A program made the translations under genes and the position numbers. The notes below the pieces were generated by a model that was given only the letters and a program-made list of their open reading frames with translations, was not told the DNA's origin and did no database searches. Source: Escherichia coli (GTDB lineage: Bacteria; Pseudomonadota; Gammaproteobacteria; Enterobacterales; Enterobacteriaceae). Taken from it: a stretch of 64,000 nt of DNA. The stretch lies in assembly GCF_024700885.2 (NCBI RefSeq), contig NZ_CP117016.1; one strand, 5' to 3'. Below, piece by piece: positions 11,070 to 33,899 of this stretch; position 1 is the first letter of the stretch, and the number at the start of each line of letters is the position of its first letter.

Positions 11070-11461
11070 AACGCCCTCTCTTTCAGCGGACAAAAATCGC
11101 TCCAGCCGCGTGGCGAAAAAACAATGTTTCCATCGATGACTTCTCCTGTTCGCCACAACGAAACGCCTTCATAACCGGCAATCAATAAGGCTTCATTATC
11201 TGCCAATAAACGCAGACAAACCCGGGCACCGGTGGCAGCGTACAGTAAGCACTGAACTGCGGGCTGCGTCTGCCAGGAGTGCATTTTTCCCCACTCCAGC
11301 GCCGACTGAACGATGGCCTGGCGGCGCAATGACTGACTTTCCATGCTCACGCGAGAGGCAAAACTGCGATCCTGTTGGCTCATTCCTTGTAATAGCAAGC
11401 TACCCAAAACCAGCAGCATAAGGACCAGAGCCAGTGACGAAACACCCTTTTCGCGGTTCAC
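11054..11461 (-). CDS. ygdB: Uncharacterized pseudopilin-operon protein YgdB
   Basis: 135-aa ORF with hydrophobic N-terminus; overlapping (coupled) with ppdB and ppdC. Confidence 0.8.
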
Positions 11462-30803: not shown

Positions 30804-31565
30804 TTAACGCGCCAGCCAACCGCCATCCACGGCAATGGTATAACCATTCACATAATCTGAAGCACTGGAGGCAAGAAACACTACCGGCCCCATCAGGTCA
30901 CTCGGCAGTCCCCAACGGCCAGCTGGAATGCGGTCGAGAATTTCCGCGCTACGTTGTTCATCTGCCCGTAGTTGTTGAGTATTGTTGGTCGCCATGTAAC
31001 CCGGAGCTATCGCATTAACATTAATGTTGTGTTTAGCCCATTCATTCGCCATCAATCGCGTCACGCCCATCACGCCGCTTTTTGATGCGGTATAAGAAGG
31101 CACACGGATCCCGCCCTGGAAGGAGAGCATTGACGCGATATTGATAATCTTGCCGCCATTGCCTTGCGCGATAAAGTGTTTCGCCGCTGCCTGAGACATG
31201 AAGAATACGCTCTTGATATTCAGGTTCATGACATCGTCCCAGTCTTTTTCGCTGAACTCGAGAGCATCTTCGCGCCGAATCAATCCGGCGTTATTCACCA
31301 GGATATCAATATGACCAAACTCAGCTACCGCGCGATCCAGCAGTGCTGGAATGCCATCAATCTTTCGCAGATCGGCGGTCAGGCTTAAAAAACGACGCCC
31401 CAGCGCCGTGACCTGCTTGATGGTTTCAGTCGGTTCAACGATGTTAATGCCAACAATGTCACAGCCCGCTTGCGCCAGCCCCAACGCCATCCCCTGACCC
31501 AGTCCAGTATCACAACCAGTGACGACCGCAACTTTACCTTCGAGAGAAAATGCACTTAAAATCAT
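30804..31565 (-). CDS. kduD: 2-dehydro-3-deoxy-D-gluconate 5-dehydrogenase (SDR family)
   Basis: 253-aa SDR ORF with Rossmann motif TGCDTGLG. Confidence 0.95.
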   Translation of the reverse strand: MILSAFSLEGKVAVVTGCDTGLGQGMALGLAQAGCDIVGINIVEPTETIKQVTALGRRFLSLTADLRKIDGIPALLDRAVAEFGHIDILVNNAGLIRREDALEFSEKDWDDVMNLNIKSVFFMSQAAAKHFIAQGNGGKIINIASMLSFQGGIRVPSYTASKSGVMGVTRLMANEWAKHNINVNAIAPGYMATNNTQQLRADEQRSAEILDRIPAGRWGLPSDLMGPVVFLASSASDYVNGYTIAVDGGWLAR

Positions 31566-31594: not shown

Positions 31595-32431
31595 CTAGCG
31601 CAAATCTTTAACGGCCACATGGTCCATATCATCAAAGACCTGGTTTTCACCGACCATGCCCCAGATAAAGGTATAAGCTTTGGTTCCGACACCGGAATGG
31701 ATCGACCAGCTCGGGGAGATCACCGCCTGCTCGTTATGCATCACAATGTGACGCGTTTCTTGCGGCTGCCCCATCATGTGGAAAACGCAGGCGTCATCAT
31801 CCATATTGAAATAGAAATAAACTTCCATCCGGCGCTCGTGGGTGTGACACGGCATGGTGTTCCACAAGTTACCCGGAGCCAGCTCCGTCAGCCCCATACT
31901 CAATTGGCAGGTTTCCAGTACATCCGGGACAAAATATTTGTTAATCGTGCGACGGTTACTGGTGAGGTTATCGCCTAACGTGACTGGAGATACTTCGTCC
32001 GGTGTGACTTTTTTGGTGGGATACGTCGTATGCGCAGGTGCGCAATTGTAATAAAACTTCGCCGGAGTAGCGGTATCAATACTGGCAAAGACAACTTCTT
32101 TTGCGCCTTTACCAACATACAGGGCTTCGCGGTGACCGATTTCATAGCATTGACCATCGACGGTAATCGTACCGGCACCGCCAATATTGATAACACCTAA
32201 CTCGCGACGTTCCAGGAAATAGCTTACGCCGAGTTGTTTACCAACTTCCCCGCCAACGGAAACCGTTTTAGTTACCGGCATAATGCCGCCAACAATAATA
32301 CGGTCAATGTGGCTGTAAACCATGGTGTACTCATCGGCGACAAATACCTTTTCAACCAAAAATTCATTGCGCAGCCCCTGGGTATCCAGCGTTTTTGCAT
32401 GCGCACTGTGGATGCTCTGTCTTACGTCCAC
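31595..32431 (-). CDS. kduI: 5-dehydro-4-deoxy-D-glucuronate isomerase
   Basis: 278-aa [33 protein letters not shown]; upstream of kduD. Confidence 0.95.
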
Positions 32432-32473
32432 ATCAACCTCCGATAATCAGTGAAGCGTGAAAATAGAAAACGA

Positions 32474-32494
32474 TAGTGAAACGCTGTTTCGTTT
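32474..32494. promoter_or_regulatory. Candidate KdgR operator upstream of kduI
   Basis: GAAAC-GCT-GTTTC palindrome (32478-32490), about 45-60 nt upstream of the kduI start; resembles the AAAC..GTTT core of KdgR boxes. Confidence 0.45.
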
Positions 32495-32717
32495 TCTCTA
32501 TAAGGGGATGATATGCCCACGGGATAGGGTTTTCAATTAAAAATAAAACAACGTTTCATTTTTAAGTTAAGGACTGAAAAAAGTGCAGTGTCGATCACGA
32601 ATATGTCATGAGAATGGAAAAATCAGGGAGCCCTGAAAATGTATGTCGACTCGCCAGCCACCATTATTCAACAGATTAATGACGGCTGATATTTATCGGT
32701 AAGGAGGAAATGCAGAG

Positions 32718-33899
32718 CTATTCGTCACGTTCAATGGTCAATGCCACGCCCTGGCCCCCGCCGATACAAAGCGTAGCCAGTCCTTTGCGGGCATTACGTT
32801 TCACCATTTCATGAACCAGAGAAACGAGGATTCGGCAACCGGAAGCGCCTATTGGATGACCGAGTGCGATCGCGCCACCATTGACATTGACCCGACGCTC
32901 ATCCCATTCAAGCATCTTGCCAACCGAAAGCGCCTGTGCAGCAAACGCTTCATTAGCCTCGATAAGATCGACATCAGCCAACTGCCAGCCAACACGCTCC
33001 AGGCAACGGCGGGTCGCATACACCGGCGCAATTCCCATCAATGCCGGATCTACACCAACGCTGGCAAATGCGCGGATGCGGGCCAGCACGGGTAAATTCA
33101 ACGCTCGTGCTTTGGCTTCGCTCATCATCATTACTGCAGCTGCGCCATCGTTTATGGATGATGCATTACCCGCTGTCACAGAGCCGAGACTATCAAATGA
33201 AGGATTTAAACGGGCTAAGCCTTCTGTACTGGCGTCAGTGCGTGGCTGTTCATCGGTATCTACAACCAACGTCTGACCGTTACTTTGGGTCATTACCGGG
33301 ACGATCTCATCTTTAAATCGTCCGGCGTCAATCGCCGCTCGCGCTTTTTGTTGCGAGCTAAGTGCGTAAGCATCCTGCAACTGACGGCTGATGCCATATT
33401 CGCGAGCCAGATTTTCGGCGGTGACACCAATATGATAATCATTGAAGGCATCCCACAACCCATCGTGCACAAGACTATCAACCAACTGGCTATTGCCAAG
33501 CTGTGCACCAGTGCGGCTATCAGTCAGAACATGTGGTGCGCGGCTCATGTTTTCCTGGCCACCGGCGATGACAATATCAGCCTCGCCACACTGTATCGCC
33601 TGAGTAGCCAGATGCAGTGCTTTAAGCCCGGAACCGCAAACGTCATTAATAGTGATTGCAGAAACGCTGTTAGGAAGACCACCTTTAATAGCCGATTGCC
33701 TTGCCGGATTCTGCCCTGCCCCTGCAGTCAACACCTGACCAAGAATCACTTCATCCACCGCATATGCAGGAACACCGGTACGTTCTATTAACGCTTTCAC
33801 GACCAGGCTGCCAAGTTCCACGGCGGAATGACCCGCTAACGCACCACGAAAGCAGCCGATAGGTGTCCGTAACGCCCCGACAATCACAACGTCTTTCAT
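32718..33899 (-). CDS. yqeF: Thiolase-family acetyl-CoA acetyltransferase
   Basis: ORF MMKDVVIVGALRTPIG...; thiolase fold. Confidence 0.9.
   Translation of the reverse strand: MKDVVIVGALRTPIGCFRGALAGHSAVELGSLVVKALIERTGVPAYAVDEVILGQVLTAGAGQNPARQSAIKGGLPNSVSAITINDVCGSGLKALHLATQAIQCGEADIVIAGGQENMSRAPHVLTDSRTGAQLGNSQLVDSLVHDGLWDAFNDYHIGVTAENLAREYGISRQLQDAYALSSQQKARAAIDAGRFKDEIVPVMTQSNGQTLVVDTDEQPRTDASTEGLARLNPSFDSLGSVTAGNASSINDGAAAVMMMSEAKARALNLPVLARIRAFASVGVDPALMGIAPVYATRRCLERVGWQLADVDLIEANEAFAAQALSVGKMLEWDERRVNVNGGAIALGHPIGASGCRILVSLVHEMVKRNARKGLATLCIGGGQGVALTIERDE

Follow-up and report, generated by a model that had tools for sequence, protein, structure and literature searches.

Two candidate KdgR/PlaR operators flank the conserved kduI–kduD promoter of Escherichia coli

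Introduction

Does the short palindrome that lies upstream of kduI in Escherichia coli act as an operator and, if so, for which repressor? That kduI and kduD (kduID) belong to the KdgR/PlaR regulon is already known, since the link was reportedly predicted by comparative genomics in 2000–2004 and is supported by mutant data from 2019. The inducer of KdgR is 2-keto-3-deoxygluconate (KDG), so that induction of kduID by hexuronates fits a repressor released by this pathway intermediate. Such induction has been described: a reporter carrying the kduI–yqeF spacer was induced 7- to 54-fold by galacturonate or glucuronate (Rothe et al., 2013, PMC3578941).

An earlier note on this DNA, made by reading the letters without tools, had singled out the inverted repeat GAAAC-GCT-GTTTC at 32478–32490, about 50 nt upstream of the kduI start, and had described it as the core of a KdgR-like box. 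The window, that is, the whole 64-kb stretch analyzed here, reads exactly so at these positions, and the center of the repeat (32484) lies 53 nt from the GTG at 32431. The 21-bp sequence built on this repeat is called box 1 below. A further box, box 2, is absent from the earlier note, though it is stronger and lies in the same spacer.

The kduI–yqeF Spacer and Its Promoter

The gene order in the window, galR-lysA-lysR-ygeA-araE-kduD-kduI-yqeF-yqeG, is that of the E. coli chromosome. A 1.5-kb query around box 1 is matched in 5,418 of 5,426 complete E. coli genomes, with 100% identity in strain MLI114. The spacer between kduI and yqeF comprises 286 bp (32432–32717), and yqeF is located upstream of kduI and co-oriented with it. 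The features of the locus are collected in Table 1.

Table 1. Features of the kduI–kduD locus, with coordinates in the window and, where given, position relative to the inferred transcription start.
Feature	Coordinates	Strand	Position from inferred start	Basis or remark
kduD CDS, second gene of the regulated operon	30804..31565	-		
kduI CDS (5-dehydro-4-deoxy-D-glucuronate isomerase)	31595..32431	-		GTG start at 32431, MDVRQ...
Shine-Dalgarno GGAGG of kduI	32437..32441	-		Invariant in alignments
Off-centre symmetry AGAAAACGA, 15 nt, TCGTTTTCT	32465..32497	-		As RNA, hairpin +5 to +37 of the inferred 5' UTR
Box 1, candidate 21-bp KdgR/PlaR-type operator, TAGTGAAACGCTGTTTCGTTT	32474..32494		+8 to +28	Consensus match, weight matrices, conservation
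Box 1 core, perfect inverted repeat GAAAC-GCT-GTTTC (GAAACGCTGTTTC)	32478..32490			
Inferred transcription start, A, 7 nt after the -10	32501	-		Invariant A in 25 genera-level sequences
-10 hexamer TATCAT	32508..32513	-		Promoter scan
-35 hexamer TTGAAA of the kduI promoter	32531..32536	-		Promoter scan; at least 95% conserved
Box 2, best KdgR-type box in the window, AAATAAAACAACGTTTCATTT	32541..32561		-60 to -40	18/20, top weight-matrix score
Conserved octamer CGTGATCG upstream of box 2	32592..32599	-		At least 95% conserved, 80 kduI upstream regions listed

A promoter scan found one sigma-70-like promoter in the spacer, on the kduI strand, with 17 nt between TTGAAA and TATCAT. The same promoter has been assigned to kduI in a genomic study, in which it falls within an RNA polymerase holoenzyme SELEX peak on the spacer (Shimada, 2014, PMC3946193). 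A mapped transcription start of kduI was sought in the literature and none was found; the positions of the boxes relative to the start therefore follow from its placement at 32501. The two boxes flank this single sigma-70 promoter and thereby sandwich it, and box 2 is itself enclosed in an extended palindrome of 18 + 18 nt (32532–32570) that reaches the -35 hexamer. The centers of the boxes are 67–68 bp apart, i.e., about 6.4 helical turns, a spacing that does not obviously favor looping between them and that may be a mere consequence of each box having a set place relative to the promoter.

The conserved octamer lies about 91–98 nt upstream of the inferred start and may represent half of a CRP site. 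A complete CRP site in the spacer was considered and rejected: a search for TGTGA-N6-TCACA with at most three mismatches gave no hit in 32432–32717, and the best 16-mer in E. coli has four mismatches to the consensus, with only one half conserved. Box 1 differs from a CRP site in both its half-site and its spacing.

The spacer contains other elements besides these. On the minus strand, a terminator-like hairpin, TCAGGGCTCCCTGA followed by TTTTTCC (32623–32636), is found downstream of yqeF, and it would insulate the kduI promoter from transcription of yqeF. A scan of 32380–32760 for terminators returned only this hairpin (32636–32623), and the stem of box 1 is A/U-rich, so that a terminator or attenuator at box 1 was discarded. 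A 23-codon open reading frame, MRMEKSGSPENVCRLASHHYSTD, occupies 32608–32679 on the plus strand. It may correspond to a 23-amino-acid syntenic intergenic microprotein reported beside kduI in E. coli 536, for which AlphaFold-Multimer predicts binding to KduI (preprint, PMC11188072).

Box 1 Matches the KdgR Consensus and is Rare

The interval 32474–32494, delimited from the letters alone, is exactly the 21-mer to be set against the KdgR consensus, which PMC5559549 gives, after Rodionov (2000/2004), as AAATGAAACAnTGTTTCATTT. Box 1 agrees with this consensus at 16 of 20 positions and has a perfect core, as the earlier note had proposed for the core. It is weaker than box 2, and its flanks, TAGT and GTTT, fit the consensus less well.

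Such a match is uncommon. The box 1 core is the sole perfect GAAAC-N3-GTTTC within the 64-kb window, in which no 21-mers other than boxes 1 and 2 agree with the consensus at 16 or more of 20 positions (the runner-up reaches 14). When the 286-bp spacer was shuffled, a perfect core appeared in 72 of 200,000 shuffles. At least one 21-mer agreeing at 16 or more of 20 positions arose in 9 of 20,000 shuffles, and two such sites together in 0 of 20,000.

Three position weight matrices were then used, none of which included box 1 or its orthologues. One was built from the orthologues of box 2, another from a third box present in other genera (see below) together with the E. coli kdgK, kdgT, and eda sites, and the last from these three E. 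coli sites alone. A scan of this kind had been proposed as a check of the original reading, and with each matrix it placed box 1 second among about 64,000 positions, behind box 2. With a matrix from sites outside the kduI promoter, box 2 scored 26.7 bits and box 1 24.0 bits, against 13.0 bits for the next match not belonging to kduI; more generally, box 1 reached 19–24 bits with matrices made from KdgR sites. Other near-matches to the core in the window (at 11118, 17820, 24739, 29497, and 32821) were examined as candidates and rejected, with at most 13 bits versus 24–27 for the two boxes, and most of them fell outside the top six of every matrix.

With a palindrome of about 21 bp, a GAAAC-N3-GTTTC core, and this rank in the matrices, box 1 has the sequence of a KdgR box. 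It also has the location of one, in the promoter region of kduI–kduD, 17 nt past the conserved -10, the start being placed as in Table 1.

Conservation across Enterobacteriaceae

The upstream region was compared in a scan with one genome per species, and the 80 closest kduI loci were listed (91–99% protein identity), including loci from Escherichia, Citrobacter, Kluyvera, Enterobacter, Lelliottia, Kosakonia, Trabulsiella, and Siccibacter. Information content was scored on 80 sequences (78 loci, the window, and K-12). Among the loci listed, the two boxes are found again near -53 and -120 relative to the kduI start codon. In the alignment, the octamer CGTGATCG, the two boxes, the -35 and -10 hexamers, and the Shine-Dalgarno sequence stand out as conserved islands amid divergent DNA.

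The consensus of box 1 among the orthologues is AAACGGAAC-nnn-GTTTCGTTA. Across the 80 sequences, the left half carries 1.3–2.0 bits per position, the three central nucleotides 0.1–0.5, and the right half 0.8–1.5. Since the half-sites are conserved and the center is variable, this is the pattern to be expected of a palindrome bound by a dimer. The right half-site of box 1 is retained at N3 spacing in about 71 of the 80 sequences scored, and the half-sites of box 2 (GAAAC/GTTT[T/C]) in all 80. A small open reading frame was considered as the source of the conservation of box 1 (32422–32520 on the minus strand, 32457–32540 on the plus strand) and set aside, since the region has no codon-like pattern and displays half-sites with a free center instead.

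The arrangement of the elements is conserved as well. Box-2 core, 8 nt, TTGAAA, 17 nt, TAnnAT, 16–19 nt, and box-1 core follow one another in this order in 70 of the 79 loci listed, in which box 1 thus keeps the same distance to the promoter, as comparative genomics would expect of a KdgR box. The gap between the box-2 core and TTGAAA is 8 nt without exception (70 of 70 loci), and the last gap, between TAnnAT and the box-1 core, measures 17–18 nt in 67 of the 70 scorable loci listed. All the orthologous -10 hexamers fit TAnnAT and vary at positions 3–4 only. Box 1 is degenerate or lost in nine of the 79 loci listed. Relative to the start codon, its position shifts between -49 and -66 among the loci listed; because the promoter gap is fixed while this distance varies, box 1 is tied to the promoter and not to translation signals.

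GGAAC and GTTTT are common half-site variants among the orthologues, and the E. coli kdgK operator, TGGAACACTGTTTTA, contains these same variants. Within E. coli, variation maintains or improves the match of box 1 to the consensus: the K-12 box differs from that of the window in the center only (AGT for AGC; 17/20), and that of the ZH063 lineage reads GAAAC-AGT-GTTTT with an ATTA flank (17/20).

Several observations concern individual lineages. About 1,056 complete E. coli genomes, which form the ZH063 lineage, differ from the window by C-to-T changes, which affect the final base of the right half-site, its flank, and the outer arm of the repeat described in the next section (32465–32482). With each of these changes a G-U pair remains in the sense-strand RNA, and the match to the KdgR box stays as good or becomes better. 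In genomes with a longer yqeF–kduI spacer, a third KdgR-like box, TATCAAAAC-nnn-GTTTCATT, is found 240–376 nt upstream of kduI, and E. coli is without it. It was seen in Citrobacter, Kluyvera, Trabulsiella, some Enterobacter, and others (loci L014, L016, L018–L022, L026, L028–L030, L034, L038, L040–L045, L047, L055, L062, L063, L069, L071, L074, and L079); in L020, for instance, the spacer measures 482 nt and the box lies at about 2140–2160.

Two loci were of another kind. A contig labeled as a deltaproteobacterial MAG (L006, 1–545) encodes a KduI 99% identical to that of E. coli, but was rejected as an example of a promoterless kduI; upstream of -22 it holds unrelated DNA with no promoter or boxes, which matches no complete E. 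coli genome, and the contig is probably chimeric. In a Klebsiella-labeled MAG (L084, 1–1272), kduI comes immediately after another coding region, with neither spacer nor promoter nor boxes in between, and it seems to lie in the interior of a different operon.

An Off-Center Repeat Overlapping Box 1

It had also been noted that the core lies within a larger imperfect palindrome. This larger symmetry exists, with perfect arms of 9 nt, but it is not concentric with box 1, its center being at about 32481 versus 32484. The arms, AGAAAACGA (32465–32473) and TCGTTTTCT (32489–32497), are 100% complementary and 15 nt apart, and one arm overlaps a half-site of box 1. The kduI strand reads AGAAAACGA-AAC-AG[C/T]G-TTT-CACT-A-TCGTTTTCT, with its center near 32480.5. 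The outer repeat was consequently rejected as a concentric extension of the box, given that the centers are 3 bp apart and that the position of the distal arm is not conserved across genera.

Evidence for KdgR and PlaR at the Locus

Published work has identified two regulators of this operon. The level of kduD mRNA rises in a kdgR deletion and also in a plaR (yiaJ) deletion (Shimada et al., 2019, PMC6958661), and both kduD and kduI are overexpressed in a strain without kdgR, for which KdgR repression was predicted (Sastry et al., 2019, PMC6892915). Derepression of kduI in a kdgR mutant, which had been suggested as a check on box 1, had thus already been seen by others, with kduD and kduI up in these two studies. 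Taken with the reporter data, this means that the genetic hallmarks of a KdgR box, derepression without kdgR and induction by hexuronates, are both documented for the operon (PMC6958661; PMC6892915; PMC3578941). The description of box 1 as KdgR-like is consequently well founded, backed as it is by the weight matrices, the conserved distance to the promoter, and the published kdgR phenotypes.

PlaR shifts a probe that spans the whole kduI–yqeF spacer, both boxes included, and its published box, ATnTGAAACnnnGTTCAnTT, is practically the KdgR box; the same authors state that kduI, kduD, and eda carry a KdgR box and propose co-regulation (PMC6958661). Box 1 fits the PlaR box by inspection, and the published PlaR-bound fragment contains both boxes; a footprint or gel shift specific to box 1 was sought in the literature and none was found. 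"KdgR-like" is therefore an apt wording, because PlaR reads practically the same box, binds the spacer in vitro, and represses kduID. The two proteins are 34% identical and have similar recognition helices; a structure of KdgR with DNA was sought and none was found. Judged by its letters and their conservation, box 1 has all the sequence-testable features of a KdgR box, and it would fit the PlaR box equally well.

Proposed Mechanism and Alternative Explanations

The reading that we favor, with a probability of roughly 80%, is that box 1 is a promoter-proximal operator of kduI–kduD that would be bound by KdgR and probably by PlaR too, and that box 2 would be a second operator. A dimer of KdgR, a member of the IclR family, would bind the GAAAC-N3-GTTTC of box 1, which PlaR/YiaJ, its 34%-identical paralogue with almost the same box, would probably bind as well. 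Once occupied, box 1 would keep RNA polymerase from opening the promoter or from escaping it, presumably by steric block, because a box at +8 to +28 lies in the downstream footprint of the polymerase. The stronger box 2, which abuts the -35, would add a second block, with or without cooperation between the boxes. During catabolism of hexuronates or pectin products, KDG would accumulate and the repressor would leave the DNA, relieving the block at both boxes and allowing transcription of kduID.

Three other explanations of the palindrome deserve consideration. It is extremely improbable that it is a chance occurrence without function in an A+T-rich spacer. Simple arithmetic on the 10 specified bases does predict about four perfect GAAAC-N3-GTTTC sites per E. 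coli genome, and the identical 13-mer, GAAACGCTGTTTC, occurs inside the rhaA/rhaB coding DNA of K-12 (L003, 936–948), far from any KdgR target. However, the shuffle probability of a perfect core within the spacer is about 4 in 10,000, the promoter distance is fixed and the center variable across about 70 species, and the operon downstream of box 1 has been shown to respond to KdgR (PMC6958661; PMC6892915); the conservation pattern effectively refutes this idea. It has more in its favor that box 1 might be used mainly or only by PlaR (YiaJ), with KdgR acting via box 2, so that two signals would be integrated at one promoter. PlaR binds the spacer and represses kduD (PMC6958661), its box ATnTGAAACnnnGTTCAnTT fits box 1, and its operator at yiaK, TTTGAAATCAAGTTTCGCA, has GTTTCG, as does the plus strand of box 1, GTTTCGTTT, where the KdgR sites at kdgT, kdgK, and eda and box 2 have GTTT[C/T]A instead. 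Nevertheless, the GTTTCG resemblance comes from one PlaR operator, the published KdgR and PlaR motifs are indistinguishable by sequence, and box 1 scores 19–24 bits with matrices of KdgR sites; we regard this division of roles as unlikely.

The remaining explanation concerns the transcript: selection could act on a hairpin that the kduI mRNA forms at its 5' end (+5 to +37), e.g., for protection from decay, in which case the likeness to a KdgR box would be secondary and box 2 alone would repress. Over its first 45 nt, the inferred 5' UTR folds more stably than shuffled sequences, at -8.3 kcal/mol in the window (z -2.37), -12.1 kcal/mol in K-12 (z -3.55), and -9.3 kcal/mol in ZH063 (z -2.98), whereas the whole 77-nt UTR is unremarkable (z -0.65). 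A hairpin on the conserved left arm is predicted in every lineage, with a mean minimum free energy of -8.7 kcal/mol versus -3.6 kcal/mol for equal windows on box 2; however, its geometry and register differ between lineages, and the left arm is conserved in sequence and not just in pairing. The displaced downstream arm tracks the left arm (AACGGA/TCCGTT in Citrobacter, AAGCGGA/TCCGCTT in Trabulsiella and Yokenella, AAATGGA/TCCATTT in one Kosakonia), yet the offset arm is significant (p < 0.05) in only 16 of 68 distinct sequences. Likewise, an inner tier of 4 bp covaries (AGCG/CGCT, CCTG/CAGG, AGTG/CACT) and is paired in 81.5% of cases versus 65.4% when shuffled, a level that 0 of 500 shuffles reached and that is far above the slid controls, whereas RNAalifold on 25 genera retains just a 5-bp inner stem (-2.0 kcal/mol) with no compensatory pairs. 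Moreover, compensatory changes could arise without selection through quasi-palindrome templated mutation, a hairpin will arise as a side effect whenever an operator palindrome is transcribed, and the right half-site keeps the N3 spacing of the KdgR type in about 71 of the 80 sequences scored. Selection on the hairpin in place of the operator is accordingly a decidedly unlikely explanation.

The operator reading is compatible with a more limited role for RNA, which we put forward as a tentative and rather doubtful proposal: the DNA of the proximal operator may also be selected, once transcribed, as a two-tier hairpin (+5 to +37) at the 5' terminus of the kduI mRNA. If this is true, the hairpin center would lie 3–4 nt from the operator center, which would explain the covariation of the "free" central bases and the right flank, as well as the displaced complementary arm that follows lineage-specific changes of the left arm. 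One sequence would then hold two overlapping codes, one for repressor binding in the DNA and the other, e.g., for transcript stabilization in the RNA, and part of the conservation around box 1 could be owed to the overlapping symmetry of the hairpin.

Box 1 changes no concept, and the possible overlapping mRNA hairpin is the only potentially new element. What is added is the anatomy of the region, with two putative operators bracketing one conserved promoter in an arrangement kept across Enterobacteriaceae, which is useful for annotation. It is also confirmed that a tool-free reading of the sequence had located a genuine regulatory site.

Comparison with Known Systems

IclR-family proteins bind as dimers or tetramers, and a survey of their tandem and multi-box sites reports a typical tandem spacing of 18–22 bp (PMC8222616). 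The kduI region resembles such two-site repression in having two palindromic boxes in one promoter region, with centers in the preferred zone upstream of the start codon. In contrast to the 18–22 bp of tandem sites, its boxes are 67–68 bp apart with the promoter between them, so that a simple side-by-side tetramer does not fit.

The PlaR (YiaJ) box has a motif practically identical to box 1, and kduI is one of ten high-affinity PlaR targets in genomic SELEX and gel-shift experiments (PMC6958661). At yiaK, the PlaR operator is extended by a third half-site to GAAAT-N3-GTTTC-N7-GAAAT, whereas there is no such alternating third box beside box 1.

The KdgR operators of Dickeya dadantii and other gamma-proteobacteria, and those of E. 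coli kdgK, kdgT, and eda, differ from box 1 in their flanks (consensus AAAT and ATTT versus TAGT and GTTT); box 1, whose operator role is a predicted one, also differs in being one of a pair 67–68 bp apart around a promoter. With these operators it nonetheless shares a GAAAC-N3-GTTTC core, A/T-rich flanks, and a span of 21 bp, together with a place at the promoter of a KDG-pathway operon, overlap with the region covered by RNA polymerase, a target that is up in a kdgR mutant, and induction by hexuronates.
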